Below, piece by piece: positions 6,568 to 42,513 of a stretch of DNA of 64,000 nucleotides. Source of the stretch: Verrucomicrobiota bacterium. GTDB lineage: Bacteria; Verrucomicrobiota; Verrucomicrobiia; Limisphaerales; UBA8199. The stretch's first letter is position 1, and each line of letters begins with the position of its first letter. Position numbers and translations under genes: made by a program. Under the pieces are notes generated by a model. That model worked only from the letters and a program-made list of their open reading frames with translations. It had not been told where the DNA came from and made no database searches. The stretch is from NCBI GenBank assembly GCA_049518415.1, contig JBEKRX010000071.1, positions 18,214 through 82,213 of the forward strand, in the 5' to 3' direction.

Positions 6568-8835
6568 CTACCTGATCCGGAGCCGATAAAACCGGGCCGG
6601 GTTCGAGTTGGTCTCGGTGACGACGTTTTGGGGCCCTATGGCGTTGGTGACCACCAGGGGCACGGCGGTGACGTTGGACCAGGCGACGTTGGCGCTGAGG
6701 GCGCCGTTGAATTGCAGCAGGTAATTGGTCAGGTCCGCCGGCCAGGAGACCAGCACCTGGTTGCTGGAGGAGAGTTGAATCGTGAGCCAGGGCGGCGACG
6801 TAACACGCGTAAGGTTGGTCACGCTGTTGTTGCCCGCCACAGGGTCATAGTCATAGGCCTCCACTGTGGCCATATTAGTGAGGGTCCCGGCCACCCGGGG
6901 AGCGACGCAGGTCAGCGTGATGGTGGCCGACCCGCCGGCGTTGAGGTCCCCGAGGCTGCAAAGCAACGAGTAGCCCACGGTGGTAAAGGAGCCCTGGGAG
7001 GTCGTTTTGGCCACCAGATTGGACAAGGAGGGTGGCGTGTCGCTCAAGCGCACATTGGGCGCGGTGTAGGGGCCGCTGTTGGTAATGGTAATCGTATAGA
7101 CCAGGTTGCTGGAGGCGGGAACGGGATCGGGCGCGACCGTCACCTGGAGCGCCACGTCGCTGTAATCGGCCACGAACGGGGCCGCGGTGGCCGGCGCGCC
7201 GCCCGGGGTGGAGACGGTGATTGGCCCGGTGGACACGCCCTCCGGCACAGCAGCCATGATGGTCGTGTTGCCGGCGATGGTGAAGCCGGCGGCCAGGCCG
7301 TTGAACCGCACGGCCGTGGCGCCCAGGAGATTCAGGCCGGTGATGGTGACATTGGTTCCGGGCAGGCCGTGCTTGGGGTTGAAGTCCGAAAGGCTGGGCG
7401 CCCCATAGAACCACCGGCTGCCGCTGTCGGCCCTGCCGCCGGGGGTCATCAGGCTGAGCGGCCCGGTGGTCACGTCATCGGGCGCCATTGCCCCGATGGT
7501 CGAGTTGTTCGTCACTACGAAGCTGGGGGCCGGGAGGCCGTTGAACCAGACGGTCCTGGCGTCGGTGAAATTCGCCCCCGAGAGCCGGACCCAAGTGCCC
7601 GCCGGCCCGTTGGCAGGAGTGAAAGTCGAGATGGTTGGCGGCAGATAGAAATTGCCCGGGCCGATGGCTGTGCCGTCGGAGGTCGTCACGGAGATTGGGC
7701 CGGTGGCCGCCGCTGCGGGCACGAAGGCCGTGAGTTGGCTGAAAGTGAAGCCGGGCTGCAGGGCGGCGAGCACGCCGTTGAATCGCACGGTCGGTGTTCC
7801 GGTTCCGGCGTTGAAATTGGCGCCCCAAACGGTCACGGCGGTATTCGGCGGACCGGAAGTGGGAGAAAAACTGTAGATCGCCGGCCAAACCACGAAGCTG
7901 GAGGCGGTGGTGACGGAGCCGGCGGGTGCATTCAAACGGATCGGCCCGGTGGTCGCGTTGGCCGGCACGGTGAACTGGAGGGTCGAGTTGTTGGTGGGAG
8001 TGACCTCGAGGGGAAGCCCGTTCAGCAGCACCGCGGTCGCCCCGAGGAAGTTGGCGCCCGTCAGCACCACGTTGGTTCCGGGCGGACCCGCCGCCGGGGA
8101 GAAACCGGTGATGGCTGGCGGCACGAAAAAGTTCGAGCTGCTGGTGTAGCTCCCTCTTGGGGTGGTGACTGCGATCAGGCCGGTGGTCACTGTGCCCGGG
8201 GCGTTGATTTGCAGCCGGCTATCCGATTCAGCAAAAAGGCCCGTCCCTGGCTTGCCGTCGAAAGTCGCACTGGTGGCGCCGGTGAAGTGCTCTCCGTTCA
8301 GGATCACCTGGACGCCGCCCGCCCCGCGCCAAGGGCTGAAATCATGGATGTATGGGCCGGGGCCGACGACGACGAAATCCTGGAGGCTGGAAGCGGCGAG
8401 GCCATTGACGATCACAGTAATCGTGCAGGGGCCCGCCGGCGCTGCCGCCGGCACCTCGGCCTGAATGTCAGTGTCGCCGACCGCCCTGGCCAGCGGGTCT
8501 GGCACGTTGCCGAACTTCACCACCAGCGTCCCCGAGAGGCCGGGATAAAGGCCGGTGCCGTGAATGTGCACGTAGTTTGGGTCGCCGGTCGCCGCAAAGG
8601 CCGGACTGAAATCAGTAATGACCGGCGCCCCGAGGAGCTGACCCACGCCGGCGAACAGCAGCAGGGCCGGACCGACGAAACCAGAGCTAAGTACTGGGTG
8701 ACGTAAATACGATGACGTAGGCGGCGAGGGATTTTTGGCGCAGACGAGGCGCGAGCACCGAGCATATCCGCAGCGATCTGTGAGGTGCGAGCAACGAAGT
8801 CTGCGCCACCATCTGCGGGGGCAAATCAATGACAC
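6568..8835 (-). CDS. secreted IPT/TIG repeat protein with DUF11-like domain and C-terminal FYRL domain (start uncertain)
   Basis: six P.I..FSP..G..G..V.l.G.NF repeats; DVALQVTVAPDPV..NLVYTITITNSGP (DUF11-like); ends RFYRLRIR; signal-like PALLLFAGVGQLLGA. Confidence 0.85.
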   Translation of the reverse strand: MSLICPRRWWRRLRCSHLTDRCGYARCSRLVCAKNPSPPTSSYLRHPVLSSGFVGPALLLFAGVGQLLGAPVITDFSPAFAATGDPNYVHIHGTGLYPGLSGTLVVKFGNVPDPLARAVGDTDIQAEVPAAAPAGPCTITVIVNGLAASSLQDFVVVGPGPYIHDFSPWRGAGGVQVILNGEHFTGATSATFDGKPGTGLFAESDSRLQINAPGTVTTGLIAVTTPRGSYTSSSNFFVPPAITGFSPAAGPPGTNVVLTGANFLGATAVLLNGLPLEVTPTNNSTLQFTVPANATTGPIRLNAPAGSVTTASSFVVWPAIYSFSPTSGPPNTAVTVWGANFNAGTGTPTVRFNGVLAALQPGFTFSQLTAFVPAAAATGPISVTTSDGTAIGPGNFYLPPTISTFTPANGPAGTWVRLSGANFTDARTVWFNGLPAPSFVVTNNSTIGAMAPDDVTTGPLSLMTPGGRADSGSRWFYGAPSLSDFNPKHGLPGTNVTITGLNLLGATAVRFNGLAAGFTIAGNTTIMAAVPEGVSTGPITVSTPGGAPATAAPFVADYSDVALQVTVAPDPVPASSNLVYTITITNSGPYTAPNVRLSDTPPSLSNLVAKTTSQGSFTTVGYSLLCSLGDLNAGGSATITLTCVAPRVAGTLTNMATVEAYDYDPVAGNNSVTNLTRVTSPPWLTIQLSSSNQVLVSWPADLTNYLLQFNGALSANVAWSNVTAVPLVVTNAIGPQNVVTETNSNPARFYRLRIR

Positions 8836-8895
8836 ATTTATGCTTTACAAACCCTGCCCCTTGAGGGTAAGCTTGCCTCCCGAACTGAAGAATTT

Positions 8896-9339
8896 ATGCG
8901 AAATCGAATCCCTTTCCTTGCCGCCCTGGTCCTGGCTGCCGCCCTGGTGGGCGGGTGCGCCAACACCGAGCGCAAACTCGGGCGCGGCGTGAGCAATACC
9001 TTTGAAATCGTTCGCATGGGCGAGATGCGCCGCACCCTCGAGCAGTCTTGCTTGTTCGACGGCCCCAATACCGGCCACGCCACCGGCCTGATTCGGGGGC
9101 TTAACCGGACGCTGGCGCGGACCGGCATCGGGCTTTATGAGGTCGTGACTGCCGCCTTCCCGCCCTACGACCCGGTTTTCACCGATTTCATGTCCCCTGG
9201 TCCTGTGTATCCGGATAATTACCAACCCGGGCTGGTCGAGGACCCGGCCTTTTCCACCGACACCAATCTGGGCTTCAGCGGGGGCGACATTGCGCCGATG
9301 GTGCCGGGCAGCCGTTTCCGGGTTTTCGATACTCACTAA
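8896..9339 (+). CDS. lipoprotein resembling the exosortase-associated TIGR04073 family
   Basis: lipobox-like VGGC, then KLGRGVSN..E and G..RTLAR..G.YEVVT..FPP. Confidence 0.7.
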   Translation: MRNRIPFLAALVLAAALVGGCANTERKLGRGVSNTFEIVRMGEMRRTLEQSCLFDGPNTGHATGLIRGLNRTLARTGIGLYEVVTAAFPPYDPVFTDFMSPGPVYPDNYQPGLVEDPAFSTDTNLGFSGGDIAPMVPGSRFRVFDTH

Positions 9340-9353
9340 TCACTGCCCCGTGG

Positions 9354-9372
9354 TCCCGATTCCGAATCGGGA
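9354..9372. repeat. stand-alone TCCCGATTCCGAATCGGGA palindrome
   Basis: 9-bp perfect arms; same palindrome as the core of family A. Confidence 0.8.
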
Positions 9373-9477
9373 GCGTTCGCCGCTGGATTGTGCCGCGGGA
9401 AGACCGCGGTTTATGGTGCCAAGGCGCGTCCAAACTTTGGAGGTCGAGGCGCTCCCAGAGCTGATTTGCGCCCGCCA

Positions 9478-10368: not shown

Positions 10369-10393
10369 CTGTAAGCGTTGCTTACGTTATTCT
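10365..10393 (+). promoter_or_regulatory. sigma70-type promoter with GTAAGC-N3-GCTTAC operator in the spacer
   Basis: TTGACT-17 bp-TATTCT; palindrome at 10371-10385. Confidence 0.65.
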
Positions 10394-10574: not shown

Positions 10575-11555
10575 ATGAGCATTGCGTTGAATGAACAAGT
10601 CCAGGCGGCGGCGGCCTGGATCGGGAACCTGCGGGGCGAGATCGGCAAGGTCATCGTGGGCCAGGAGCAGTTGGTGGATCGCTTGCTGGTCGGATTGCTG
10701 GCCAACGGCCACGTCCTGCTCGAGGGCGTGCCCGGTCTGGCCAAGACGCTCTCGGTCCGCACCCTGGCGGCAGCCATCCACGCTTCTTTTCATCGCATCC
10801 AGTTCACGCCCGACCTGCTGCCGGCGGACATCGTCGGGACGCTGATTTACAGCCCCCAGGACGGCAAGTACCACGCCACCAAGGGACCGGTGTTTGCCAA
10901 CTTCGTGTTGGCGGATGAAATCAACCGGGCGCCGGCCAAGGTGCAGTCGGCCCTGCTGGAGACCATGCAGGAGCGGCAGGTCACCCTGGGCGGGGAGACC
11001 ATGCCGCTGCCCTCGCCCTTCCTGGTCTTGGCCACCGAGAACCCGATCGACCAGGAAGGGACCTATCCGCTGCCCGAGGCCCAGGTGGACCGTTTCATGT
11101 TCAAGGTGCTGGTGGACTATCCCTCCTTCGGGGAAGAGCGCAAGATCCTGGACCGCATGGCCTTCACGGCCCCGGAAACTCGGGTCCAGCCGGTCATTCC
11201 CTTGGACGAGATCCTGCGAACGCGGCGGCTGGTGGACCAGATTCACGTGGACGCGAAGGTGCGGGATTACGTGGTCCACCTGGTCTTCGCCACCCGCCAG
11301 CCGGCGCACTACCAGCTCGACCTCAAGCATTTCATCCAGTTCGGCGCTTCGCCGCGCGGGACGATTTACCTGACGCTGGCCGCCCGCGCCTGGGCGCTGT
11401 TGCAAGGCCGCGCTTACGTGACGCCCGAGGACGTCAAGAGCATCGGCCCCGACGTCCTGCGCCACCGCATTATCCTGACCTACGAAGCCGAGGCGCAAGC
11501 GGTGACGACCGATGCGATTATCAAGAAGGTGTTTAACGCGGTGCCGGTGCCCTAA
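10575..11555 (+). CDS. moxR: MoxR-family AAA+ ATPase
   Basis: HVLLEGVPGLAKT, RIQFTPDLLPAD, ADEINRAPAKVQSALL, GASPR. Confidence 0.95.
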   Translation: MSIALNEQVQAAAAWIGNLRGEIGKVIVGQEQLVDRLLVGLLANGHVLLEGVPGLAKTLSVRTLAAAIHASFHRIQFTPDLLPADIVGTLIYSPQDGKYHATKGPVFANFVLADEINRAPAKVQSALLETMQERQVTLGGETMPLPSPFLVLATENPIDQEGTYPLPEAQVDRFMFKVLVDYPSFGEERKILDRMAFTAPETRVQPVIPLDEILRTRRLVDQIHVDAKVRDYVVHLVFATRQPAHYQLDLKHFIQFGASPRGTIYLTLAARAWALLQGRAYVTPEDVKSIGPDVLRHRIILTYEAEAQAVTTDAIIKKVFNAVPVP

Positions 11556-11566
11556 TGAAGATGACC

Positions 11567-11623
11567 TTGGCAATGGGCAATTTGCATTCGGCGATTGGCA
11601 ATTGGCAATGGGAGATTGGCAAT
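11567..11623. repeat. heptamer tandem array (TTGGCAA-like) at gene junction
   Basis: ttggcaa tgggcaa tttgcat tcggcga ttggcaa ttggcaa tgggaga ttggcaa, running into the next ATG. Confidence 0.85.
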
Positions 11624-12527
11624 GACGGTGACTGAGCTGCTGGAGACTGTTCGTCGCGTGGAGGTGCGCACCAATCGCCTGGTAAACGACACCATGGTGG
11701 GCGCCTACCTGAGCCAGTTCAAAGGCCGGGGCATGGATTTCGACGAGTTGCGCGAGTATATCCCGGGCGACGAGGTCCGCGATATTGACTGGAACGCGAC
11801 CTACCGGATGGGCCGGCCTTTTGTGAAGCGCTACCGGGAGGAGCGCGAGTTGGCGATGGTGTTGGCCGTGGACATCTCGGCCTCGTCGGCGTTTGGCTCG
11901 TTGCGCCGGAGCAAACGTCAGTTCGCCGCCGAGCTGGCCGGTACGCTGGCGATTTCCGCCACCCGCAGCAGTGACAAGGTCGCGCTGCTGCTGTTCAGCG
12001 ACCAGGTGGAGCTGTTCCTCCCACCCCGCAAAGGCCGCCGCCAGATCCTCCGGCTCATCCGGGAAACGCTCTTCTTCGAGCCCAAACACCGCGGCACCGA
12101 CATCCCCGGCGCCCTGGCCTTCCTCAACCACGTCCTGCACCGGCGCTCGATTGTCTTCCTGCTTACCGATTTCCTGCACAATTTCGGCGCCGCGGCGGCC
12201 GGGCGCGACACGGTCCAGGAAATCGGCCTCACCAATGCCCGGCACGACCTGATCTGCCTGCACCTGCACGACCCCCGCGAAGGCGAGCTGCCCCCGGCCG
12301 GCCTGCTTACCCTCGAGGACGCCGAGACCGGCGAATTGCTCGAGGTGGATTCGAGCCGCGCGGCCGTGCGCGAAAAGTACGCCGCCACCAACGCCCAACG
12401 GCTCGCCGAGCTGGACCGCGCCCTGCGCCGCGCGGGCGTGGACACGCTCCGCTTCAGCACGGCGGAGAGCTTCGCCCAGACGCTCCAGCGCTTCTTCGAA
12501 ACCCGGCGGGGAAGGAGGAGAGGATGA
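11622..12527 (+). CDS. DUF58 domain protein
   Basis: FKGRGMDFDELREYIPGDEVRDIDWN, VKRYREERE. Confidence 0.93.
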   Translation: MTVTELLETVRRVEVRTNRLVNDTMVGAYLSQFKGRGMDFDELREYIPGDEVRDIDWNATYRMGRPFVKRYREERELAMVLAVDISASSAFGSLRRSKRQFAAELAGTLAISATRSSDKVALLLFSDQVELFLPPRKGRRQILRLIRETLFFEPKHRGTDIPGALAFLNHVLHRRSIVFLLTDFLHNFGAAAAGRDTVQEIGLTNARHDLICLHLHDPREGELPPAGLLTLEDAETGELLEVDSSRAAVREKYAATNAQRLAELDRALRRAGVDTLRFSTAESFAQTLQRFFETRRGRRRG

Positions 12528-13144
12528 GCATCCGCATTGCCAATTGCCAATTGGCAATTGGAAATCTGCTGCTCGCGACGGCCTCGCTCACGGCTGGCAC
12601 CAACTCTCCTGACCAAATCCCTCCCCTCCGTCCGCCGCGCGGCGAACTGCCGCCAGGCTTTTGGGAAGAATATGGACTGTTGGTGGTGGTTGGGGCTGTG
12701 CTGGCGCTTACGTTGCTGGGCGTGGCGGCCTGGTTCCTCAGCCGGCCCAAGCCGGTGGCCGTGCCGGCCCCCGAGGCGCTGGCGCGCCAGGCCCTCGAGC
12801 CGTTGCGCCGGCAGCCAGAAGAGGGCGGGCTGCTGAGCCGCGTCTCGCAGGTCTTGCGGCATTACCTCCAGGCCGCCTTCGGTCTGCCGCCGGAGGAACT
12901 GACCACCACCGAGTTCTGCCGCGCGCTCGGCGGGCACGAGCGAGTCGGGCCGGAGTTGGCGGCGGCCCTGAGCGAGTTCCTGCGCCGCTGCGACGAGCGC
13001 AAGTTTGCGCCGACCGCCCCGCCGCCGGCCCTCGGGGCCGTCGAGCAGGCCCTTAAGTTCATTGAGGCCTCCGAGCAACGCCTGGCACGGTTGCGTCAGG
13101 CCGCCCAGGCGGTCCCAGCGGCGGCCAGCAAAGGGGGTCAGTAG
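12524..13144 (+). CDS. single-TM protein of the moxR/bat operon (DUF4381-like)
   Basis: ATGA overlap with upstream gene; TM segment; LRHYL..FGL..ELTTTEF and CDERKFA. Confidence 0.8.
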   Translation: MSIRIANCQLAIGNLLLATASLTAGTNSPDQIPPLRPPRGELPPGFWEEYGLLVVVGAVLALTLLGVAAWFLSRPKPVAVPAPEALARQALEPLRRQPEEGGLLSRVSQVLRHYLQAAFGLPPEELTTTEFCRALGGHERVGPELAAALSEFLRRCDERKFAPTAPPPALGAVEQALKFIEASEQRLARLRQAAQAVPAAASKGGQ

Positions 13145-13191
13145 AGCGACGCCTTGGGTTTCAAGGCCTTAAGGCCTCAAGGCTCGAGTGA

Positions 13192-14232
13192 ATGAACGGC
13201 AACCTTGAATGGCAATATCCGTGGTTGCTGGCGCTGCTGGCGCTGCTGCCCATTTATGCCTTTCTGCACGGACGCCCGGGCCGGCTCTCGGCCTTGCGGT
13301 TCCCGAGCGCGGACCTGGCCCGCGCGGCGGGAGCGCCGGCGCGGGCCGCCGCCGGGCGGCTGCTCCTCTTTCTCCGGCTGCTCACCGTGGGATTATGCGT
13401 CGTGGCGCTGGCCGGGCCGCGTTTTGCCAACGACCGCACCGAAACCCAGGCCAGCGGCGTGGACATCATGCTCGTGCTCGATTTGTCCTGGTCGATGATG
13501 GCCCTGGATATGGGCGGCCCCAACGAGCACGTCTCGCGCTATGACATCGCCGCGCAGGTGCTGGAGGATTTCGTCCGCAAGCGGCCCAGTGATCGCATGG
13601 GGCTGATCGTATTCTCGGCCGTGCCGTACCTGGCCAGCCCGCTCACGCTCAACCATCAGTGGCTGATCGAGAACCTCCATCGCCTCCATGTGGGCCTCAT
13701 CCGCGACCTGGGCACCGCCATCGGCGATGCCACCGCCGCCGCGGCCAAGCGGCTCAAGGCCCTCAAGGACAGCAAAAGCCGCATCATGATCGTGCTGACC
13801 GACGGCGACAACAACCGCGGGGAAATCGATCCTGTGCCGGCCGCCCAACTCGCCGCCGCCCTGGGCGAGAAGGTCTATACCATCGGCATCGGCATCGAGC
13901 AGCCCTGCCAATTGTATGCCTTCGAGCCCGCCACCGGCAAACTGCTCTTCGACGCCCGCGGCAACCTCATGCCCCGCATGACCCTCCAGCCGGCCAACTA
14001 CGGTGTCCTCGGCAAAATGGCCGCCCTTTCCCAGGCCAAATTCTACCGCGCCACCAGCCGCCGCGAACTGCAAGGCATCTACAACGACATCGACCGGCTG
14101 GAGAAAACCGAGGTCAAGCTCCGCCGGTTCACCACCTACCGGCCCCTCTTCGCCTGGCCCTTGTTGGCTGCCCTCGGGCTCTTCAGCCTCGAAATGGCCC
14201 TGTCTAACACCCGATTGCGGAGGGTGCCGTAA
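13192..14232 (+). CDS. batA: BatA-like vWA domain membrane protein
   Basis: N-terminal PWLLALLALLP, MIDAS DLSWSM, GTAIGDA, LTDGDNN, IDRLEK. Confidence 0.9.
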   Translation: MNGNLEWQYPWLLALLALLPIYAFLHGRPGRLSALRFPSADLARAAGAPARAAAGRLLLFLRLLTVGLCVVALAGPRFANDRTETQASGVDIMLVLDLSWSMMALDMGGPNEHVSRYDIAAQVLEDFVRKRPSDRMGLIVFSAVPYLASPLTLNHQWLIENLHRLHVGLIRDLGTAIGDATAAAAKRLKALKDSKSRIMIVLTDGDNNRGEIDPVPAAQLAAALGEKVYTIGIGIEQPCQLYAFEPATGKLLFDARGNLMPRMTLQPANYGVLGKMAALSQAKFYRATSRRELQGIYNDIDRLEKTEVKLRRFTTYRPLFAWPLLAALGLFSLEMALSNTRLRRVP

Positions 14233-20704: not shown

Positions 20705-21163
20705 TCAGGAATCGACGACGGCTATCCGGATAGGCAATAGCTTCAGGCCGACTCTCTCGGCGAGGCTGCGCTGTCGGCGGTCGAAAGAAAAGAATTCGCT
20801 CGCTCCCACCGCCAGTGCTGCCGCGACATGCACCACATCCAGGCTCCGGGCGCCAGTGGCGACCGTGTGGTCTGTGGAAAGGGACTCCGCTTTCTGGAAC
20901 ACGGCTGGCAGGTCGTAAATCGGCCTTTCCAAGAGACCGCTATCGAGGTCGCGCTGGAGGTTTTGGAGCGCGCCCGTCAATTCCCCCTCGGTGAGTTCAC
21001 CGCGGTGGCGCTTCAACCTCAGCGCGTTGCGAATCTCAAGGCTGTGCAAGTCAGTGAACGGCAGCGGTGGCACCGCCTGGCGGATGAGGGCAACAGCTTC
21101 AGGTGAGGTTTCCTCCAGACAGTAGGCCTTTACCAGCAACGCCGAGTCGATGTAGGCGCTCAT
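20705..21163 (-). CDS. vapC: VapC-family PIN toxin
   Basis: YIDSALLVKAY, RSLDVVHVAAA, SFDRRQ; ATGA overlap with antitoxin. Confidence 0.9.
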   Translation of the reverse strand: MSAYIDSALLVKAYCLEETSPEAVALIRQAVPPLPFTDLHSLEIRNALRLKRHRGELTEGELTGALQNLQRDLDSGLLERPIYDLPAVFQKAESLSTDHTVATGARSLDVVHVAAALAVGASEFFSFDRRQRSLAERVGLKLLPIRIAVVDS

Positions 21164-21408
21164 CGGTCCTGGCGGCTCTCCAGAATGATCTCGCTGGCTG
21201 GCTGGCCCTTGACTCCTTTCGGGAAAAGCCGCTTCAGCCGGCCCTCGAAATCCGGCCACTGCAGTGGCGCCTTTCGTGGCGCGACGGTCGGCGTTAGCGT
21301 CGCGAACTTCTTCCCGTGAAAAGTTATTTCCACGCTTTCCCCTTGTTGAATCCACCTGGAAACGCGGGGGAAGGCATAGCGCAAGTCTCTGACGGTTGCC
21401 GTCTTCAT
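21160..21408 (-). CDS. Phd/YefM-family antitoxin
   Basis: MKTATVRDLR..F..V..WI..GE.VEIT..GK..A.L.P. Confidence 0.88.
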   Translation of the reverse strand: MKTATVRDLRYAFPRVSRWIQQGESVEITFHGKKFATLTPTVAPRKAPLQWPDFEGRLKRLFPKGVKGQPASEIILESRQDR

Positions 21409-21629: not shown

Positions 21630-24600
21630 TTATCGGCATTCGCTCCGCAAGGAGGTGACGGCGCAGAAGGCGGCGGTGCCGGCCAGTCCCGCGCAGCCCA
21701 CCGCAATGCATCCCGCGCACGGAACCTGTCCGCCAGGCACAAAGCACAAGCCGCCGCAGGCATAGATCGAGGCGAGACAGGGGGCGACCCACTCGACTCC
21801 CCAGTCCAACATACAGAGGGTCCAGTCGGTGGTATCCAGCGTCAGCCTCCAGGTGCCCCAGGACTTGCAGCAGGGCAGTATCCCGCACCGGCCCCAGCGC
21901 TTGCAGCACGGTAATAATCCGTTGGGGTCGGTTTTGCTGAGGGGATTGTTGGCGCAGTAGGTGAAGCCGTTGCCCAAATTCGCCGGGTCGCCCCAGGAGC
22001 CGAGGCCGTCCCGGGAAATGAAACGGCCGACATTAGGGTCGAGGTAACGCGCGCGGTAATAGTAAAAGCCGGTTTCGGGAAGGTAGCGGCGGCCGGTGAA
22101 CAGGCAGGAGTTGCCGAGGGCGGAACTGCCGAGGAGCGCCCCCGAGCCGTTGTAGAACGACGGGGTGCCGTAGTCACCGTAACGGTATTGCTCGACCACA
22201 TCGCCGCTGGTGTCGGTAACCTTCTGGATGCTGCCAAGGTCATCGGCGTGGTAATAGTAGCTTTGCGCCCCGCGCGTCATTTGGAGCAATTCGTCCACCC
22301 CGACACCCCAGACGTAAGTGGCGAGCGTCGCACCTGCGCCGTCTTGTTCCTCGATTTCCTGCGGGCCGGCGTAGTAAAAGCGGGTAACCACCCCCGCGAC
22401 GGTTTGCTCGAGGCGCCGTCCGAAGCAATCGTACTTGTAGAGGTTGGTCAGCGTGCCGGCCGTGGTCTGGGTGAGTTGGTTGCGGTAATCATAACCCATC
22501 AGGCGCGGTCCGGCGGTGGTGAGATTGCCGTTCCGATCGTAGCCGCGCGATTCAAAAGGCGTGACCGTGTATTGGTTCATCTGGCTGTCGGCGGGCTCCG
22601 GCAACGTCGGGTCCATGAAGTACGTGCCTTGGCCCACCTCACCTGTCACCAGCAATCGATTCCCCGCGCTATCGAGCAAATAATCGGTAGTTTCACCCGT
22701 GGCGCTTACAGAACGGATGAGCCGGTTGACTGAATCATAAGTGTAGAGACAGGGAGCGGGCGGGGCCGCGAGTTGGTCCACCACCGCCGCTTGGTTGTCC
22801 ATCGTATCCCAAGTGTAGGCGCGAAGGTCTATAGGCGTTCCGCCGGCGATTCTGGAGTGGAAGGTACTCGCCGGCCGGCGCAGAGCGTCATAACCCCAGT
22901 CCAGCCGGGTGCCATTGCCGTAGTCTCGCCGCTCGACGCGCGACGGGCCAAGGTAGAAGTAAGTGGCGATCGTCCCGCCGGCGTCTGCCACGCTCGCCTT
23001 GCGGTTCAGCCCGGCATAGGCGCAGGTAAGCTGGCGGCCCCCAGGATAGGCGCAGCTCAGCCGATTCCCGGTGCCGTCAAAAGCACTGACGATATTGCGG
23101 GCCGGGCCGGCCGGCAGCACTTGCTGGGTTTCGCGCACCAGGTCGGTTAACGAGTCGTAACCACGCGTTACCAGCGAGCCGTTGTTCTGAGCCAGCACGA
23201 CGCTGGAAAGGCCGTCGTAGCGGTATCGTTCGAACGTGGTGTTAGTCGCGACGCCGGGGCCGACCGTGACGGCGACGTCGGTAAGGCGGTCGAGCAGATC
23301 ATAGGCATTGGTAATTCGATTTCCGTTGGGGTCGAGGCGCACGATCAGATTGTTGTGAAGATCGTAGAGGTTTGTCTCCCCGGTGGAGTCGGCCCACAGG
23401 GTGCGAATCCTGCGATCGAGCGCGTCATAGGCATAGAGAGTGGCGTTGGCATTGGGATCGGTTTGGCCCACCAGGCGTGAATTGTCGTCCCATTCCTGCG
23501 AGGTCGCCACACTGTCGATAACCGTCCCACTCCCGTCACCCGTATTGGTCAGGAGACGTATCGTCTGCAACAGTCGGTTGAGGCCGTCATAGGCATATTG
23601 GGTCACGTTGCCGCGGGCGTCGGTTGTGGCCACCGTGTTTCCGCGCGAATCATAGCTGTAGCGATTGGTTCTCGAGGCATTCTCCACTACCTGCGTGAGT
23701 CGATTCAGATTGTCGTAGGAGTAGAGAGTGACGAAGGGCTGGACCAGATGATCCAGGTCCGATTTGTCGAGCTCGGTCTGGGTGACGGCGTTGCCGGCCA
23801 GGTCATAATTCCACACGGTGCTGTTGCCCTTGGCGTCGAGCGTCAGGCTCTGGCGGTTGGCGGTGTCATAGACCACGGAGTTCGTCTGATTATTATCATC
23901 GACCGTAGCCACCACCTGCGAGTTGTCGCTATAAAACGTCAACGTCGTCGCCAGGCCGTCACCAACCGGTGTCTGCGTTGCCGGGTCGAAGAACAGCAGG
24001 TCTTTGCGCACCGGCCGGTTCATGGCGTCGAAACCGAACCGAGCCTCGGCGAGCCGGGTATTCCCAGCGCTGCCCGGCAGGTCGGACAACTCACCCCAAG
24101 TCACGGTATTCGTGAGGTTGCCATTAGGATCGTAGTGATTGGTCTTCATGTTGCCCATCGGGTCCAGCACGGCCAGTTGCCGGTTGTAACCGTCATAAGT
24201 GTAGCGGGCGATTCTGGGCGAATCCTCGATTCCCTGGGCCGTTTGCGTGAGGTTCCCGTTGGCGTCGTAATCGTACTGAATGGTGGACTGGGCGGGGTCT
24301 CCCGGGGCGGCAATTTCACGGAATGGCAGGTCGCGCTCGTCAAAGGACCGTTGCACGAGGCTGGCGGGCTGATGCCCGTTGACCGCTTCGGGCCGGCGCT
24401 CCAGGATGGGGTTGCGATTGGCATCGTAACCGTATTCGGTGACGATGAACTGAGTGCGGGCGGGGGCGGGGATTTCCGCAAGGGTCAGCACGGTGTTGGC
24501 CAGGTTCTCTCCCCCCTCCTCCTCGACTTTGCAGATGACACGGTTAAGGATTTCATACTCCTGGAGGGTGGTGAAATGGGTGTTGGTGGCGACCAGGAGG

Positions 24601-26762
24601 CCGGTGCCATCCCGGTTCTGGCGATCGGTCCGGACCACGTTGTTGTTGGCATCGTACCAGGTGAGCTTTTCATAGCGGATGCCGCCGCCGTCGCTGATTT
24701 CGGGAGGCAATGCCGGAGACAATTCCTGGACGGTCTGATCGAGGGCATTCACGGTGTAGAGGGTGTCATGGCCGGCCGGGTCCACGAGCCGGGTCAGGTT
24801 GCCAACGGCATCGTGCTCATAGGTGTTCGTCAGCGCTAATCCGTCGGCATCGACAATTTGCTCGCGCAAATAACCGGTCTGAGGACCGCTGGTGTAATAC
24901 GTGAACACGTCGCGCCGGCGATAACTGCTGCCGTTGTCCGGCCAGATATGCGCCGTCATCTGACCGAAGCTGTTGTACTCCCATTGCTCGGTGCTGGAGG
25001 CAACTGCATGGACCGTGTTGGTCCGGTTTCCGTTGGCGTCGTAGGCGTGCAGGGTGACGTTGCCGCGAGCGTCGGTCTGGCGGGTGGCGAAATTGAAGCC
25101 GCAGCAGCCGCCAAAGCTGGTGTCGTATTCGAACGTCTCCAGAAGCTGATCCTGGTCCCCGCCCGGCGCCCCCGGTTGGCGGATTTGCATCCGGAGATTT
25201 CCCCGTGCCCGCGGGTCGGCTTGCGGATTGAGGTCACCTTCATAAAGCCGCAGGGTGACATCGCCAATGGGATGAGTCAGGCTGACCAGCAGCGAATCCC
25301 GGTTCCAGGCGAAGCGGGTTTCGAACCAGGGCGGGTCATTGGTGCGCAGCGGGTTGACAGGGCGATTCTGGGTTTCGGTCGTAAGCAGTCCCGGCACTGC
25401 CCGGCCGGTGAACACACGGCGGTTGACGCAGCGGTTGGCCGCGTCAAAGGTCACTTCGCTGCCGTTGCCCACCCGGTCGTTGACGATGGCCTTGACGAAG
25501 GCGTATTGGTTGTCCGCGCCCGGCGAAAGCGGCACGTAACAAATCATCAACTGGTCGGTGCTGTAGCCCCAGGCCTGGCTGACGACCCGGTCGAAGTTGA
25601 AGTCCGCGGGGTCTTGGGTAGCGGCGTAGGTGTTCTGCAGCCAGGTTTGGCCCTTGGAATCCGTAATGCTCAGCAGGTTATGATTTAAGGCAGGTACGGG
25701 GAGGCCCTTGGAGTAGGTATAGACGGTCGTCTTGCCACTGGGATAATCGTTGCCGTTGGTGGTGCCGGTGACCACTGGCGAGGTGACCGACTTCAAATCC
25801 CCAGCGTCACCCTCGGCATCGCTGTTGCTGTAGTAAGCGTAACGAACGGTCCGCCCGAGGAAATCGGTGACCGTGGCGATGAATCCATCCGCGTTATAGC
25901 CAACCATGAGGGTCCGCCCCAGGCTGTCGGTCACCGTGATCAAGCTTCCCAAGGCGTCGTAGGCAAAAACCAACGCGTTTCCGTTGCGATCCTCGATGCG
26001 GTTGATCTTGCCCTGCGGCGGGCTGCCGTCCAGGGGCAGGAATTCCCACAACCCGTTGTCGGGGAATCGCAGCCGGAAGACACCGTTGCTAAAGGAGCCG
26101 ACGCGGAAGAGGCCATCGGCGGCGAACCAGCCACCCGGCTGGGGAGAGAAGACGTCGGCCCGGGTGTTGCCGTCGTACACCACCACATTGGGCCCATGCG
26201 GTTGGATGCGGATATTGTAGGCATAGTCCCAGCCGTTGCCCTGGGCAGTGGCGGGCCCCAGGCGCGAGCGATACTTGCGCGCCCACAGCAGGTCCAACCC
26301 GCGCCCTTTAATGCGCAGGTCTTCCGCCTCGCAATGGACTTCCCCCGAGAAGAGGTAAATATAAGGCGTGGTTGTCGGCAGGGCCGAGCAACCCCCGCAG
26401 GCGCACGGTTCCGCCGGGGCGCGCTCCGGCGGTTCGACCAACGTGCCGTGCGGCAACGCAAGCCGGTAAAACTGGGGCGTGAGCAGCGGACTGGGTTCGG
26501 ACCACACCGCGGGGCTGGTCCCGGCCACCACGATGGCCCGGTTGGACCAAGCCCCGAGCACGAGGTCCGCACGGGATTGCACCTGATAGACACACCCGGG
26601 GGGCGTGGGCCAGTTCAGAGCGATGTTCGCTTCGTGGCAGGTGATGGCGAGTTGCGGAGCGGCAAGCAGCCCCGACTGACTTCCCAGCATGAGGATGGCG
26701 TGCCCGATCCGCACTCTCATCGACTTCCGCTTTCGGTCGTGGAGCGAACCCTGAGCTTTCAT
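21630..26762 (-). CDS. Rhs/YD-repeat protein with N-terminal signal and FYRL domain and a Cys-rich C-terminal tip (alternative start 26720)
   Basis: many YD repeats; Rhs core YYYHADDLGS, FTGRRYLPETGFYYYRARYLDPNVGRFISRD, YCANNPLSKTDPNGL. Confidence 0.93.
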   Translation of the reverse strand: MKAQGSLHDRKRKSMRVRIGHAILMLGSQSGLLAAPQLAITCHEANIALNWPTPPGCVYQVQSRADLVLGAWSNRAIVVAGTSPAVWSEPSPLLTPQFYRLALPHGTLVEPPERAPAEPCACGGCSALPTTTPYIYLFSGEVHCEAEDLRIKGRGLDLLWARKYRSRLGPATAQGNGWDYAYNIRIQPHGPNVVVYDGNTRADVFSPQPGGWFAADGLFRVGSFSNGVFRLRFPDNGLWEFLPLDGSPPQGKINRIEDRNGNALVFAYDALGSLITVTDSLGRTLMVGYNADGFIATVTDFLGRTVRYAYYSNSDAEGDAGDLKSVTSPVVTGTTNGNDYPSGKTTVYTYSKGLPVPALNHNLLSITDSKGQTWLQNTYAATQDPADFNFDRVVSQAWGYSTDQLMICYVPLSPGADNQYAFVKAIVNDRVGNGSEVTFDAANRCVNRRVFTGRAVPGLLTTETQNRPVNPLRTNDPPWFETRFAWNRDSLLVSLTHPIGDVTLRLYEGDLNPQADPRARGNLRMQIRQPGAPGGDQDQLLETFEYDTSFGGCCGFNFATRQTDARGNVTLHAYDANGNRTNTVHAVASSTEQWEYNSFGQMTAHIWPDNGSSYRRRDVFTYYTSGPQTGYLREQIVDADGLALTNTYEHDAVGNLTRLVDPAGHDTLYTVNALDQTVQELSPALPPEISDGGGIRYEKLTWYDANNNVVRTDRQNRDGTGLLVATNTHFTTLQEYEILNRVICKVEEEGGENLANTVLTLAEIPAPARTQFIVTEYGYDANRNPILERRPEAVNGHQPASLVQRSFDERDLPFREIAAPGDPAQSTIQYDYDANGNLTQTAQGIEDSPRIARYTYDGYNRQLAVLDPMGNMKTNHYDPNGNLTNTVTWGELSDLPGSAGNTRLAEARFGFDAMNRPVRKDLLFFDPATQTPVGDGLATTLTFYSDNSQVVATVDDNNQTNSVVYDTANRQSLTLDAKGNSTVWNYDLAGNAVTQTELDKSDLDHLVQPFVTLYSYDNLNRLTQVVENASRTNRYSYDSRGNTVATTDARGNVTQYAYDGLNRLLQTIRLLTNTGDGSGTVIDSVATSQEWDDNSRLVGQTDPNANATLYAYDALDRRIRTLWADSTGETNLYDLHNNLIVRLDPNGNRITNAYDLLDRLTDVAVTVGPGVATNTTFERYRYDGLSSVVLAQNNGSLVTRGYDSLTDLVRETQQVLPAGPARNIVSAFDGTGNRLSCAYPGGRQLTCAYAGLNRKASVADAGGTIATYFYLGPSRVERRDYGNGTRLDWGYDALRRPASTFHSRIAGGTPIDLRAYTWDTMDNQAAVVDQLAAPPAPCLYTYDSVNRLIRSVSATGETTDYLLDSAGNRLLVTGEVGQGTYFMDPTLPEPADSQMNQYTVTPFESRGYDRNGNLTTAGPRLMGYDYRNQLTQTTAGTLTNLYKYDCFGRRLEQTVAGVVTRFYYAGPQEIEEQDGAGATLATYVWGVGVDELLQMTRGAQSYYYHADDLGSIQKVTDTSGDVVEQYRYGDYGTPSFYNGSGALLGSSALGNSCLFTGRRYLPETGFYYYRARYLDPNVGRFISRDGLGSWGDPANLGNGFTYCANNPLSKTDPNGLLPCCKRWGRCGILPCCKSWGTWRLTLDTTDWTLCMLDWGVEWVAPCLASIYACGGLCFVPGGQVPCAGCIAVGCAGLAGTAAFCAVTSLRSECR

Positions 26763-26971
26763 AGTCTTGAGATTTGAGAGTTGTGGCCGCGAACTTTTTC
26801 GTGGCAGCCCCGTGAAGGCCCGTCGGAACAAACCGGAAACCCAGGCGCAACCTGAGATTTCACGCCAGTTCGTTTGCCAGGCCTCTTAGGGGCCGGTTTC
26901 AAGTTCTATCCGATCTCCCGGCTAAAAGTCAATTTTTATCGGCGGCTGCGCCGGGCTGGGAGACCTGCGGG

Positions 26972-28381: not shown

Positions 28382-28663
28382 AGATTCGGCGACCCTTGCA
28401 TGATTGGCGCCTGCTGGGCGCACTTTATTCCGTTCCCGGAATGATTGTCGAGTGCAATCTTGAGCGCCGGCGCGCGACCCGGAGCAACACCCGAGCGGCT
28501 CGCGTGGGTTTACGCCGACGCACCTCTTTGGCCTGGCGGAGGGTTCCGGGCGTCCGGCCGGCAGGGTTAATGGTTATGCAGGCCGAGAGAGCGGTCGCTC
28601 TGCGGGTTTGAGGTTGACAAGGGGCCGGGGATTTGGATTAGTTCCGTGGCATGGGAGCAGGCT

Positions 28664-29830
28664 ATGAGAATGACGATGTATTTGTTGATGGCATTCTTGT
28701 TTCTTATTCCGCTGGCCGGGCGCGGCGCGCAGACAGCCAAGGCGAGGCTCTACTGCCTATCGGTCGTGTTAGACTCGGCCCTGGACGAGTACGGGGACAT
28801 CCTGGAGGTCAGCAGCACCGGGGCGCCCGATGGCCTCGGTGAGTTGGTTCCCTGGGCGGGCGCGCAGCCGCCGGGCAGCGACCTAGTTCTCCCAGGAACA
28901 ACCGAATATGTCAGCGACCTGGCGCTGAATGATATCTTTTATGGCCAGATGTATGGAACGATCAGTTTATACCTGCCATCCATCGATGACGGGTACGGCC
29001 ACACAGTTGACGCAAACACCAATAGATTTCCTGACTTTTTCGAGGTTTCACAAAGGCTGCAGGCGGCCACCACGTCCGGTTCCTGGAGCGTGGGCTCCTA
29101 CGGCGGCGGCAGCATTTCCGCCGCTTGGAATCGTACGGCCGGGTCGAAGAGCGGCACCTGCCGGCTCGTGCTGACCGACACTTACGGTCAGCACTACGGC
29201 ACGTTCCTCAGCGCGTTTGAAATCCTCGAATACGCCGGAACGATCTCCTACTCGCCCGGGTCGAACACGGTCTCGGGGAGCGTCAACCTCACGCAAACCG
29301 GCAATGCGGCAAACCAGCTCCAGGGCGCGGTCCAGTTCACGAAGGAACCCACCAACCGGTTCGACCAACTGACCCTGTCGCCCGGCGCGTGGACGGACGC
29401 GGCCCAGCAAACCCACATTTTTACGAACCATCTTTTCCTGCGCGACCAGAACTGGCCTACGAACTACGCCGGGTACGTGGAGTTCGATAATGATGCCGAC
29501 CCGAGCACGTTCTATCCGTGGTCGGTCTGGGTTCTCGCGATCGACGACCTCAACGACGCGAACCACAACGGAATTCCCGATTTCAGCGATGATCCGGCGC
29601 CGGCCCCGCCCCGCCGGCCGCAGTTGTCCCTGGCAGCCAGTTCCACCAACTTGCTGCTGACGATTCGCGGCGATGTGAGCCACCTGCATCAGGTGCAGGA
29701 GGCGCTCTCGCCGGCTTCGACCAACTGGCAAACGGTGGTTTCGGTGACGCTGACAAACGACCCGCAGGTGGTCTTGCTGCCACTGCCTTCAGAGAGCCGG
29801 GCGAAGTTCTGGCGGGTGCTGGCGCAATAG
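28664..29830 (+). CDS. secreted hypothetical protein with C-terminal FYRL-like domain
   Basis: Sec signal; DANTNRFPDF and DANHNGIPDFSD Ca-binding-like motifs; ends PQLSL...W...KFWRVLAQ. Confidence 0.85.
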   Translation: MRMTMYLLMAFLFLIPLAGRGAQTAKARLYCLSVVLDSALDEYGDILEVSSTGAPDGLGELVPWAGAQPPGSDLVLPGTTEYVSDLALNDIFYGQMYGTISLYLPSIDDGYGHTVDANTNRFPDFFEVSQRLQAATTSGSWSVGSYGGGSISAAWNRTAGSKSGTCRLVLTDTYGQHYGTFLSAFEILEYAGTISYSPGSNTVSGSVNLTQTGNAANQLQGAVQFTKEPTNRFDQLTLSPGAWTDAAQQTHIFTNHLFLRDQNWPTNYAGYVEFDNDADPSTFYPWSVWVLAIDDLNDANHNGIPDFSDDPAPAPPRRPQLSLAASSTNLLLTIRGDVSHLHQVQEALSPASTNWQTVVSVTLTNDPQVVLLPLPSESRAKFWRVLAQ

Positions 29831-30050: not shown

Positions 30051-31010
30051 CTAGTACCCAAACATGAATCGGCCGGTGCCGAGCTGGATGAACCCGGTGC
30101 GTTCGTTGTACCAGGCGAAATCTCTCACCCCGGCGGCGTCGAAGGTCATCACGTTGGGATAATAGTAATGAACCCCATACTTGGAGGTCGCGCTAAGCCA
30201 TTTATGCATCTCCGAATGCCCGTCCGCAAAGGAGAAACCGCACGCGCCGTTGTGGTAGGAGGCCGGAATATCCTGCCAGTTATAAACGCCATCGGGATTA
30301 TTGATGAAGTAGCCGTCATTGATCGAGTCCGCCTGTTCATCGAGAAACAGCCAGGTCTTGGCCGGCTTGGGCACGGAGCTTTGCTTGAGGAACTGCGCGT
30401 AACCAGTGACGCCCCAGTGGATGCCCCTGGCGGTATCGTCGCCACTCTCGCCATCGCTGAAAAGGCCGAAGTTCGAGTTCATCGAGAGACTGCGGTTGCG
30501 CTGCGTCCAACCGGACGCCCGCTGGATCGGACTCAGGTAATTGTCAGCCGGGCATTTATACACCCCGAGGGCCGCGGCCGTATATCGGCCCAGGACGCCG
30601 CTGGCGACCCAGGCAAAGTTGGTGTTGCTGCGATCGGCCACTGAGGCGCTGGCTGTCCAGGTCATGACGTTGTTGACCCAGCTATCCAGCTTGCCGCTGC
30701 TGATGGAGGCAACGGTCTCGTCCACGCCGAAGTTGTTGGCCACGCGGTCGTTGAAGTCGCCGCAGTAGAGGTGCCAGGCGGTCAGGAGTTGCCTGAGGTT
30801 GCTCAGGCAGCCGATCTGCTGGGCCTTGATCTTGGCCTTGCTGAGCGCCGGCAGGAGCATGGCCGCAAGGATGGCGATGATCGCGATCACGACCAGCAGT
30901 TCAATCAGGGTAAAGGCCCCGCGCCCCCCGGGGTTGGTTTTCCCGGCGTAGCGCTGCGGTGCAGGGCGACCATTGAGTTCCGCCACGGCCGCTGAGCGAT
31001 GCGTTTTCAT
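30051..31010 (-). CDS. prepilin-type N-terminal cleavage / DUF1559-like protein
   Basis: [51 protein letters not shown] (H-X9-DG). Confidence 0.95.
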
Positions 31011-31029
31011 AAGACAGTTTGCCGCACAT

Positions 31030-31058
31030 ACTATATCCTCCTCAATGGCCGTTTGCAA
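31030..31058 (-). promoter_or_regulatory. sigma70-type promoter of the DUF1559 gene
   Basis: TTGCAA-17 bp-TATAGT. Confidence 0.65.
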
Positions 31059-31305
31059 AGTCCACAGTTTGGAATTGCCGCCTGGCGGGCGCATCTCCGA
31101 ATGAGGGCGGTTTCCGGCTCACGCCGCGCGCGTTTCGGAGTGCGGCGACTTGCCCCGTGAGAGGCATGCCCCGTCGATGCTTATCGCGCCGGGCACTCCC
31201 TAACCCGCGTCCTCATTCGGATAGGCGCCCAGCCGTGGAGCGGATTGCATTTTTTTGAGACAAAATGCCCTGAGGCGGTGTAGTCATGTTAACGGCAACC
31301 AAACT

Positions 31306-38439: not shown

Positions 38440-38506
38440 GCCGTGGGCGTGCGAGCCGGCTGCCGGCGGGTCTAAGCGCCCGTGCAAAAACAAATTCCGA
38501 TTTTCT

Positions 38507-38696: not shown

Positions 38697-38806
38697 CATA
38701 ATCTTGGAATTACGCCGCGCCTTCGGAACTTGTTTTGGCATGAACCCTAAAGGCCGGTCCAAAACGCGCCCGGACCGGCAAAGAGTCGGCTTTGAATTCA
38801 ACGACC

Positions 38807-40348: not shown

Positions 40349-40403
40349 GCTTGCGCCGGCGCAAAGAACTCACTGCCCGGAGTCCGATTCCCGGGCACAG
40401 TAT

Positions 40404-40551
40404 TAGCGAGGCTGCGCCGCGCCAGGAAGCCTCGAAGCCAGGGGGCGCTCTTAGAGTCTTTGGTCGCAACATCCACGCTTTTGCGTGAATGTCTTGGCAT
40501 GTTTCCTTTGGAGAGGCCTGATTCTTCGGCGCGGAGCGCCGCATTTAACGC
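40404..40551 (+). repeat. repeat family B, left copy
   Basis: 40410-40551 matches 43459-43600 at 140/142 positions. Confidence 0.92.
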
Positions 40552-41019
40552 AATTCCCACAGGGCGCGGTACTTGGGCACTATTTACAATTGATTGGACA
40601 GCCGGAAAACCGTTGTTTTATGGGCTGAAACGAACCTTTGACCGTTTCCCTCTCTTTCCCCCCAAAGTGGGCCAGACGCAAATCCGGCCCAACTCAGCAC
40701 CCTCTTCGTGATGAACGTCAATACCGCTGACGGTTGACCATCCAGCCATCGTATCTTGAACGGGTTGCCTCGCCGAATGGGCCAAAACTCCCGCGTCATC
40801 GTGCCAAATCTCAACCGCGGCGTAAATCCACCTTCCCTATCATTCAGGCCAGCATCCACCGAAAGGTCTTGCTTGCACCCCTACAAGAAAAGGTGGAAAA
40901 TGGCAGTGGTCAATTAAGGTCCATTATTTGCTGCCGGGTGCGGCTGCCCAAACCCGGTGGGCATGAGGCTTACCGGGGTGGATATGGACATGTCGCTTCC
41001 GGGCACAATGAAAATGCCT

Positions 41020-42513
41020 ATGAAAACAACAAGAGCCATATTCGGAGTTCTGAAAATCACCTTTGGTTTCACGGGCCGTATCTGCACTTCATCGCTTGGG
41101 CCTCTGCGGTTGCTGCTTTTGATACTGCCCGTTTGGGGAGCACAGGCCGCAGTGGTCTTCACCAGCCTTTATTCATTCACCGGCGGCGATGATGGCGTAT
41201 GTCCCACTGCCGCTCTGGTGCAAGGCAGCGACGGCAATTTCTATGGCACGACTTCCGGAGACGGTGTCGTATTCTACGGCACCGTGTTCAGAATCAGCAC
41301 CAATGGGGCGCTGACCAGTTTGTATTCTTTCACCGGCGGCAATGATGGCGCATATCCCTATGCCGCTCTGGTGCAGGGCAGCGACGGGTATTTTTATGGC
41401 ACGACTAGCTCCGGCGGCACGAATGGAGACGAGTTTAACAACGGGGGCACCGTGTTCAAAATCAACAGCAATGGGGCGCTGAGGACCCTTTATGCTTTCG
41501 GCACGATTACTAATGCGAATGGCGACTGGCTGGATGGCAACAATCCCAATGGGCTGGTGCAGGGCAGCGACCGCAATTTTTATGGCACGACTTGGCGCGG
41601 CGGCACGAACGGCTGTGGCACCGTGTTCAAAATCAGCACCAATGGGGCGCTGACGACCTTGCATTCATTCACCGGCGGCGGTGATGGCGGGTATCCCACT
41701 TATCCCACTGCCGCTCTGGTGCAGGGCAACGACGGCAATTTTTACGGCACGACTGCAGGGGGCGGCACGAACGATAATGGCACCGTGTTCAGAATGAGCA
41801 CCAATGGGGCGCTGACCAGTTTGTATTCCTTATTCAACGGCGGTGGCATTTACCCCAGTGGGCTAGTGCAGGGCAGCGATGGCTATTTCTATGGCACGAC
41901 TCGAGAGGATGAATCCCTTCTAGGCTGCGCCCTCGGCAATGGCACCGTGTTCAAAATCAGCACCAATGGGGCGTTCAGCAGTTTGTATTCGTTCGACAAC
42001 GGCACAAATGGCGCATGGCCAGAGGCCGCTCTGGTGCAGGGCAGCGACGGCAGTTTCTATGGCACGACTTCTTGCGACCGGTATAGTTGTATGGACGGTC
42101 GCTGCGGCTTTGGCACCGTGTTCAGAATCAGCACCAATGGGGCGCTGACCAGTCTGTATTGGTTCGACAAGGACAACGGCACGAATGGCGGATGGCCAGA
42201 GGCCGCTCTGGTGCAGGGCAGCGACGGCAGTTTCTATGGCACGACTTTCGCCTATGGAAATGGACCTGGCTGGGGTACCGTTTTCCGGCTGACCATTGTG
42301 CCAGACCCGCAACTTACAATCATTCCTTCCGAATCATACGTGATTTTGACGTGGCCGACCAATTACGCCGGGTTCACTTTGCAGTCCACCACAAACCTTG
42401 GTTCATCGGCGGTCTGGACTCCCGTTTCTCCGAAGCCGGTCGTCATCGGCGGGCAGACCGTAGCTATCAATACAATCTCCGGCACACAGCAGTTTTATCG
42501 GTTGAGCCGGTAA
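41020..42513 (+). CDS. secreted Gloeo/Verruco (GloVer) tandem-repeat protein with C-terminal FYRL domain (alternative starts 41008/41014)
   Basis: seven LVQG(S/N)D..FYGTT...GTVF repeats; signal LLLLILPVWGAQA; ends QQFYRLSR. Confidence 0.92.
   Translation: MKTTRAIFGVLKITFGFTGRICTSSLGPLRLLLLILPVWGAQAAVVFTSLYSFTGGDDGVCPTAALVQGSDGNFYGTTSGDGVVFYGTVFRISTNGALTSLYSFTGGNDGAYPYAALVQGSDGYFYGTTSSGGTNGDEFNNGGTVFKINSNGALRTLYAFGTITNANGDWLDGNNPNGLVQGSDRNFYGTTWRGGTNGCGTVFKISTNGALTTLHSFTGGGDGGYPTYPTAALVQGNDGNFYGTTAGGGTNDNGTVFRMSTNGALTSLYSLFNGGGIYPSGLVQGSDGYFYGTTREDESLLGCALGNGTVFKISTNGAFSSLYSFDNGTNGAWPEAALVQGSDGSFYGTTSCDRYSCMDGRCGFGTVFRISTNGALTSLYWFDKDNGTNGGWPEAALVQGSDGSFYGTTFAYGNGPGWGTVFRLTIVPDPQLTIIPSESYVILTWPTNYAGFTLQSTTNLGSSAVWTPVSPKPVVIGGQTVAINTISGTQQFYRLSR

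Follow-up and report, generated by a model that had tools for sequence, protein, structure and literature searches.

A single domain of about 70 residues recurs at one end of the mature chain of many otherwise unrelated exported proteins in the genome of a soil bacterium of the Verrucomicrobiota, four of them encoded in the 64,000-nucleotide stretch analyzed here (contig JBEKRX010000071.1, positions 18,214 to 82,213; hereafter, the window). This domain, which we call the end-domain, is predicted to fold as a six-strand beta-sandwich and appears to be a remote relative of the fibronectin type III (FN3) domain that ends after strand F. We favor, at a probability of about 0.4, the reading that it is a terminal handle docking exported proteins at the cell envelope.

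Four copies in the window and their relatives in the genome

The initial annotation of the window had pointed to one domain common to four secreted proteins, at coordinates that proved correct, two of the copies, those of the TIG and Rhs proteins, lying on the minus strand. The four copies and their host genes are given below; E values for the copies come from a hidden Markov model (HMM) built from 128 copies, all from other contigs (the leave-out model).

6568-8835, minus strand: gene for an exported protein with six TIG domains and DUF11 (Pfam TIG E 2e-38, DUF11 E 1e-22; NCBIfam choice-of-anchor Z repeat)
6568-6795, minus strand: end-domain of the TIG protein, spanning its final ~73 residues and the stop codon (E 5e-8)
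21630-26831, minus strand: Rhs/YD-repeat gene of the polymorphic-toxin type (DUF6531, RHS repeats and Rhs-associated core in Pfam and NCBIfam)
26661-26720, minus strand: signal-peptide-like stretch of the Rhs protein, MRVRIGHAILMLGSQSGLLAA (by eye from the translation)
26460-26660, minus strand: domain copy that opens the mature Rhs protein, at residues 58-124 (E 4e-9)
28646-29830, plus strand: gene for an exported protein of no known family (no Pfam or NCBIfam match), the hypothetical protein
29618-29830, plus strand: end-domain of the hypothetical protein, FWRV variant (E 3e-5)
40957-42513, plus strand: GloVer-repeat gene (TIGR03803; NCBIfam E 8e-108)
42307-42513, plus strand: end-domain of the GloVer protein, the copy used for modeling (E 7e-8; AlphaFold2 model with six strands)

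All four segments were matched by the leave-out model (E 4e-9 to 3e-5), and neither this model nor one built from the four segments alone gave any match in the reversed database. The segments share 28-37% identity and seven invariant columns in their alignment. In keeping with the initial annotation, the translations place the domain at the end of the TIG, hypothetical and GloVer proteins and at the opening of the mature Rhs protein, and signal-like N-termini can be read in all four. The TIG protein, whose true start codon is uncertain, reads '...PPWLTIQL..VSWP..YLLQ..W..RFYRLRIR' up to its stop codon, with the leave-out alignment reaching to 3 residues before the stop. The corresponding ends are 'PQLSL..HQVQ..NW..KFWRVLAQ' in the hypothetical protein and 'PQLTI..LTWP..FTLQ..W..QFYRLSR' in the GloVer protein, again directly ahead of the stop codon, while the Rhs copy, 'APQLAITC..LNWP..YQVQ..W..QFYRL', lies directly behind the signal-like stretch. 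The passengers are otherwise unrelated in Pfam and NCBIfam, comprising TIG plus DUF11 domains, RHS/YD repeats, no family at all, and GloVer repeats; a search of the Atlas with the passenger of the hypothetical protein likewise returned no usable match. Two of the window passengers fall in NCBIfam 'choice-of-anchor' families, a naming convention for families that pair with differing C-terminal anchors.

The genome (94.6% complete) was searched as 69,910 six-frame open reading frames (ORFs). The HMM of the four segments alone, the check that had been proposed for the domain, retrieved 25 further ORFs at E<0.01, and the iterated search converged at 134 copies in 115 ORFs. The existence of the family is thus confirmed far beyond chance. 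The carriers amount to 115 of 4726 crude gene calls (~2.4%), and their copies split into 31 clusters at ~28% identity. A terminal pair of domains is present in 14 proteins of the genome. A paralogue family of 14 ORFs (L049, L053, L060, L075 and L079 among them) has recently expanded; its members combine an NHL propeller, PKD-like and Ig_3 domains and a terminal pair, with near-identical signal peptides of the 'MKRITTNLLAGLLLAALAMA..' type.

A Pfam scan of the 80 shortest of the 115 carriers (the 35 longest were left out) revealed a wide variety of passengers. Repeat and propeller types include RCC1, NHL, BspA-type leucine-rich repeats, LamG, Ig_3, MBG, LVIVD, PQQ_2 and DUF5122. Enzymes and related proteins are represented by GH25, GH27, S8, sedolisin, M14, lipase and an FGE-sulfatase-family protein, and further passengers are a chagasin-type inhibitor, an AhpC-type redoxin, multihaem cytochromes and a single cohesin-type domain in one carrier (L077). 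No family at all was found on 18 of the 80. The family HMM and the Pfam scan together bear out the view that one real domain sits on unrelated exported passengers.

With one exception, the 80 scanned carriers look extracytoplasmic (79/80). The remaining ORF opens with extracytoplasmic function (ECF) sigma-factor regions followed by a hydrophobic segment. This ORF, L064 (C85:2702-5185, minus strand), holds ECF sigma-factor regions 2 and 4, the hydrophobic segment, a DUF5122 propeller and the end-domain in one frame, and is either a sigma/anti-sigma-type fusion or a pair of genes that the stop-to-stop ORF has joined. A crude signal-peptide score was positive for 86 of the 115 carriers compared with 169 of 400 controls, and stricter rules gave 71/103 carriers compared with 1201/3458 other genes; the scoring is crude, and clear signal peptides were seen by eye in several of the misses.

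Position at the chain end and range

The restriction of the domain to chain ends, noted for the four proteins of the window, holds across the family. Between the final copy and the stop there are 2-7 residues in 106 of the 115 ORFs. Of the nine exceptions, two continue past the domain for only 27 and 54 residues, three have it in the interior, and four have it right behind the signal peptide; these four are the Rhs protein, a multihaem cytochrome, a lipase-like protein and a member of the FGE-sulfatase family. The domain therefore stands at one end of the mature chain in 110/115. The same holds beyond this genome. Among the best matches from 36 other genomes of the phylum, one per genome, 31 have no more than 8 residues left before the stop, one has 13, and in four the chain continues; the top public representatives are flush with the C-terminus in 140 of 150 cases. 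All of 111 further homologues, a sample dominated by one tandem-pair subfamily, were flush, 103 of them ending in proline.

The length of the tail is likewise narrow. After the arginine of the [FL][YF]R motif there follow 4-5 residues in 84/100 of the terminal copies of this genome and in 99/132 public copies, and the last residue is proline in 57/100 and 83/132, respectively. As a control, another stop lies within five codons of only 15% of natural stops in the genome. Because the tail measures 4-5 residues in most copies against this 15% control, the stop position looks selected. Proline at +4/+5 is also present in all three of three N-terminal copies, and therefore marks a domain boundary rather than a free end.

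Copies also occur in series, with 2-10 in tandem in public proteins, and internal runs are known (P0009; C62, C30 and C56); such runs reach up to 9 copies. One public protein, P0055 (837 residues), has a copy at residues 32-104 and two more at its C-terminal end, and so carries the domain at both chain ends.

A profile search of representative clusters returned 82,226 at E<=1e-3 and 6,899 at E<=1e-10, counts that include ordinary fn3 arrays and overstate the family. In a sample of the phylum, 60 of 151 genomes gave a match at E<=1e-5, with a patchy spread: the domain was detected in 13/15 genomes of f4, 5/5 of f18 and 5/5 of f25, and in 0/14 of g6, 0/24 of f13 and 0/14 of f20. An NCBI record for a GloVer protein with a terminal pair (P0210) is labeled as belonging to a Dongiaceae (Alphaproteobacteria) metagenome-assembled genome, which points either to faulty binning or to the presence of the domain beyond the phylum. 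Structural twins in the Atlas lie C-terminally on Verrucomicrobiota clusters of the multicopper oxidase, CAP, S8, PQQ and cyclophilin types, and their aligned part corresponds to no Pfam 38.1 family. Relatives are named in their source records as 'hypothetical protein' or after the passenger. A literature search, mostly at the level of abstracts, found no account of the motif, the module or a surface-protein sorting tag in Verrucomicrobiota.

Fold and relation to fibronectin type III

For the GloVer copy, AlphaFold2 with a 92-copy alignment predicted a six-strand beta-sandwich with a predicted local distance difference test (pLDDT) score of 92.5. Foldseek gave no match at E<=1e-3, and an exhaustive structural aligner returned FN3 and cytokine-receptor domains at Z<=7.9 and the carbohydrate-binding module (CBM) CBM56 at Z 6.0, levels rated common. 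The suggestion in the initial annotation that similar tails may already be catalogued was not borne out in Pfam or NCBIfam, as the 92 copies matched no consistent family of either even at E<=1, and none of the 92 matched Pfam fn3 (PF00041) at that threshold.

The relation to FN3 is seen in two public proteins, P0022 and P0095, both of them canonical arrays of fn3 (Pfam E 3e-284 and 1e-124, respectively) with a period of ~100 residues. The end-domain profile follows each such fn3 repeat as far as '..HYRVSA', beyond which ~23 residues find no counterpart. An hhalign comparison of the family with a P0022 repeat gave Prob 73% and E 3e-5, aligning columns 15-76 of 80 to residues 11-76 of 99, and the same comparison with the single fn3 of L037 gave no signal. 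True end-domain arrays have a period of ~72 residues, compared with ~100 for fn3, and those in P0024, P0010, P0013, P0009, P0012 and P0014 showed no fn3 match at E<=1e-3. Since the profile alignment stops at 'HYRVSA' and the arrays are shorter in period, these sequence comparisons indicate that the module is a remote FN3 relative ending after strand F, without the FG loop and strand G. It shares with fn3 the pattern 'LxW ... Y.lq.S.d..W ... YR[VL]' and its best structural matches, and differs from it in stopping after strand F and in its strict chain-end rule. The initial annotation had held that a match to a characterized passive immunoglobulin (Ig) module would speak against its proposal; a remote, truncated FN3 relative goes part of the way there.

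Because of this ancestry and the internal runs, a passive FN3 spacer is a serious rival to any functional reading. The module would then be a shortened FN3 spacer or cap, spread by duplication or recombination at 3' gene ends and tolerated there. Such an origin is consistent with the hhalign match to a bona fide fn3 repeat, with a profile that also catches canonical fn3 arrays, with best structural matches to generic FN3 and cytokine-receptor domains, with the stalk-like look of the internal runs, and with the proline found 4-5 residues past the motif in the N-terminal copies too, so that it provides no free-end signal. It accounts poorly, however, for a stop kept at a distance of 4-5 residues although the copies share only ~20-30% identity, belong to 31 clusters and extend to other classes of the phylum. 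Ordinary FN3 arrays have no end rule (P0022 itself ends 129 residues beyond its last copy), and one terminal module on unrelated passengers in 2.4% of gene calls is hard to explain without a shared function. We therefore regard a purely passive role as unlikely, although it is the alternative to be taken most seriously.

A local profile match linked the family to the CBM32/discoidin chains 2rv9 and 4zxe (E 5e-7, 48/73 positions, residues 53-101 of 136), and PF22633 was matched by 2 of the 92 copies. The F5/8 type C family was matched locally only and not over the whole ~130-residue jelly-roll. CBM32/discoidin was rejected as a functional lead, as the canonical fn3 repeats of P0022 and P0095 match F5_F8_type_C_2 too.

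These matches, together with CBM56 among the structural hits and the many glycosidase, peptidase and adhesin-type-repeat passengers, could be taken to indicate a CBM-like or adhesin-like module that targets its passenger to a substrate outside the cell, for example a polysaccharide or a different cell. The discoidin likeness, however, is a short motif also present in canonical bacterial fn3 and is uninformative on sugar binding; cytochromes, a redoxin, a protease inhibitor and an Rhs toxin have no common substrate; and CBMs follow no strict end rule. We consider ligand binding of this kind improbable. A two-copy complex prediction, addressing self-association, scored 0.10 and gave no answer either way.

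Proposed docking at the envelope and its alternatives

In the docking reading, which we favor, the ~70-residue G-less FN3-type sandwich would serve as the 'end domain' of Sec-exported proteins and be bound non-covalently by a shared envelope component, either protein or glycan. The passenger would thus stay displayed on the cell instead of diffusing away. Tandem copies near the chain end might add avidity or act as a stalk, and the handle would move to the mature N-terminus where the C-terminus is reserved, for example for the toxin tip of an Rhs protein. The binding, the location at the envelope and the receptor are what we infer here from the observed family, its position and its exported passengers.

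Docking is preferred to an export signal because copies occur in tandem and may be placed N-terminally. Wall-binding modules likewise occur in tandem terminal copies, and to our knowledge export signals, those of type IX secretion (T9SS) included, are not known in tandem or at N-termini. Further modules that bind the cell wall or surface are SLH, LysM and GW. Like wall- or surface-binding regions of the WapA type, the end-domain is terminal, sometimes present in several copies, and attached to unrelated exported proteins; unlike in that case, its host is a diderm Verrucomicrobium. In WapA-type toxins, the N-terminal region binds the cell wall, according to PMC12704120, and in polymorphic toxins the N-terminal domains are adapted to the route of delivery, as described in PMC8636562. 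The layout of the Rhs protein in the window (signal peptide, domain, Rhs repeats, toxin tip) matches that of WapA-type toxins. In the same gene, the last ~100 residues beyond the Rhs-associated core (21630-22400, minus strand) are hydrophobic, rich in Cys and without a Pfam match. The ORF downstream (20705-21355, minus strand, 216 residues) also belongs to no family and is a candidate immunity gene.

Several observations weigh against docking. The tight stop position, for which docking has no obvious need, fits an export signal at least as well, and FN3 ancestry together with internal runs allows a purely structural role. Cyclophilin, redoxin, multicopper oxidase and chagasin-type inhibitor passengers are typically periplasmic, so that a surface location is not implied. 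No gene family exceeds random expectation among neighbors within three positions of the 115 carriers; which neighbors are commonest just reflects the size of the paralogue families, the largest being GFO/IDH/MocA oxidoreductases, histidine kinases, response regulators and sigma-54 activators. Finally, seven loci in five reduced genomes (1.7-2.1 Mb) revealed no common candidate partner; the carriers there lie next to housekeeping genes and comprise subtilases, a LamG protein, a CBM4_9-bearing sulfatase and an M10-like peptidase.

In two of these reduced genomes, a domain-ended S8 subtilase lies between RNase HII and the znuABC operon (L122 in G009, L123 in G072), and G009 has three domain-ended subtilases in a row. 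PorU of the T9SS is a peptidase that is itself cargo, and the conserved peptidase carrier may recall it by analogy, which is only a lead.

One alternative is that the domain acts as a cargo tag of an outer-membrane translocation pathway, read at the chain end and possibly cleaved, in the manner of the T9SS C-terminal domains (CTDs). For this comparison we considered type A (TIGR04183 / PF18962) and type B (TIGR04131 / PF13585) CTDs, both from Bacteroidota. According to PMC11285876, T9SS CTDs are compact Ig-like sandwiches with a conserved C-terminus needed for secretion. Like the end-domain, they are beta-sandwiches of ~70-80 residues with a constrained end, placed at the very C-terminus of numerous unrelated proteins exported through Sec. 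The flush position and narrow tail length of the end-domain therefore parallel those of the CTDs, the genome contains more than 100 cargo-like proteins so marked, and many carriers are enzymes that could be released.

The two may differ in fold, with six predicted strands and an FN3-like form without G in the end-domain against a 3+4 seven-strand fold in the T9SS CTD, and they differ in that the end-domain also occurs in tandem, internally, at mature N-termini and in another phylum. Tandem, internal and N-terminal copies would be unexpected of a tag recognized at the chain end. The structural matches listed include no T9SS CTD chain, which does not exclude a likeness. TIGR04183 and PF18962 matched none of the window proteins, 80 further carriers or 92 isolated copies (E<=1). 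Genome-wide, TIGR04183, TIGR04189 and PF18962 gave no match either, but the control genomes also gave none, so absence is not established; the zero count of SprA candidates (TIGR04189) in the 94.6% complete genome is read with the same reservation, the control genomes being silent for that family. The comparison with T9SS CTDs drawn in the initial annotation consequently stands as an analogy of position and fails on sequence and on the tandem, internal and N-terminal copies.

The search for machinery gave no support to an export pathway. As the initial annotation had stated, the window contains no dedicated machinery. It does encode a T2SSE-type ATPase (47208-48713) and, at 30051-31094, a prepilin-type gene, along with housekeeping genes. 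No adaptor-like neighbor recurs beside the carriers. Secretin genes number 8 in this genome and are present in 147/151 genomes of the phylum, rising to 12-16 in some sister lineages, and are most numerous in lineages without the domain; no association of secretins with the domain was found across the 151 genomes. The groups f13 (0/24) and f20 (0/14) lack the domain yet have 2-16 secretin matches each. Taken together, we consider an export signal unlikely, more so than a passive spacer.

A broader proposal is that the domain tags cargo for a surface-sorting system, so far undescribed, across much of Verrucomicrobiota, in which a shared envelope receptor would bind the open G-less sandwich at the chain end, perhaps by donating a strand as chaperones and adjoining subunits do to pilins, and more than 100 proteins per cell would be placed on the surface. 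We regard this as quite doubtful. Of the export or surface-anchoring tag proposed in the initial annotation, one position-restricted domain on exported passengers was recovered, while a sorting or export function found no support; no recurrent partner gene was found.

Chaperone-usher pilins have an incomplete Ig fold completed by a donated strand, and both they and the end-domain are Ig-like sandwiches without the last (G) strand, ending soon after strand F. Unlike a pilin, the end-domain is predicted to fold confidently alone, and the genome has no usher: PF00577 gave no match, the E. coli control being positive. Strand donation to the end-domain would be pure conjecture by analogy. Dockerins of cellulosomal enzymes are ~70-residue modules, mostly C-terminal and now and then placed elsewhere, that dock dozens of unrelated secreted enzymes to a scaffold, and consist of helical calcium-binding repeats; the end-domain model is all-beta, unlike these, and no scaffold with repeated receptor modules was identified. 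PEP-CTERM / exosortase substrates were considered and rejected, as the carriers end 4-5 residues after the FYR motif and not in a PEP motif with hydrophobic helix and basic tail; only 4 PEP-CTERM-like tails were found in the genome, all on other small proteins.

Elsewhere in the window there are two separate sets of MoxR-type AAA ATPase and DUF58 genes (10575-14232 and 54130-58819, both on the plus strand), which additionally include VWA/BatA or transglutaminase-like genes.

The module is thus present on ~2.4% of the genes of this bacterium and in 60/151 genomes of its phylum, yet it has no name in the databases searched (Pfam and NCBIfam). Even as a mere spacer, it would leave the strict end position to be explained. 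If it is a true targeting or docking handle, the surface proteome of these bacteria would be definable from sequence alone, the handle would point to a new receptor or pathway, and it could offer a surface-display tool in bacteria that are abundant in soil and water.

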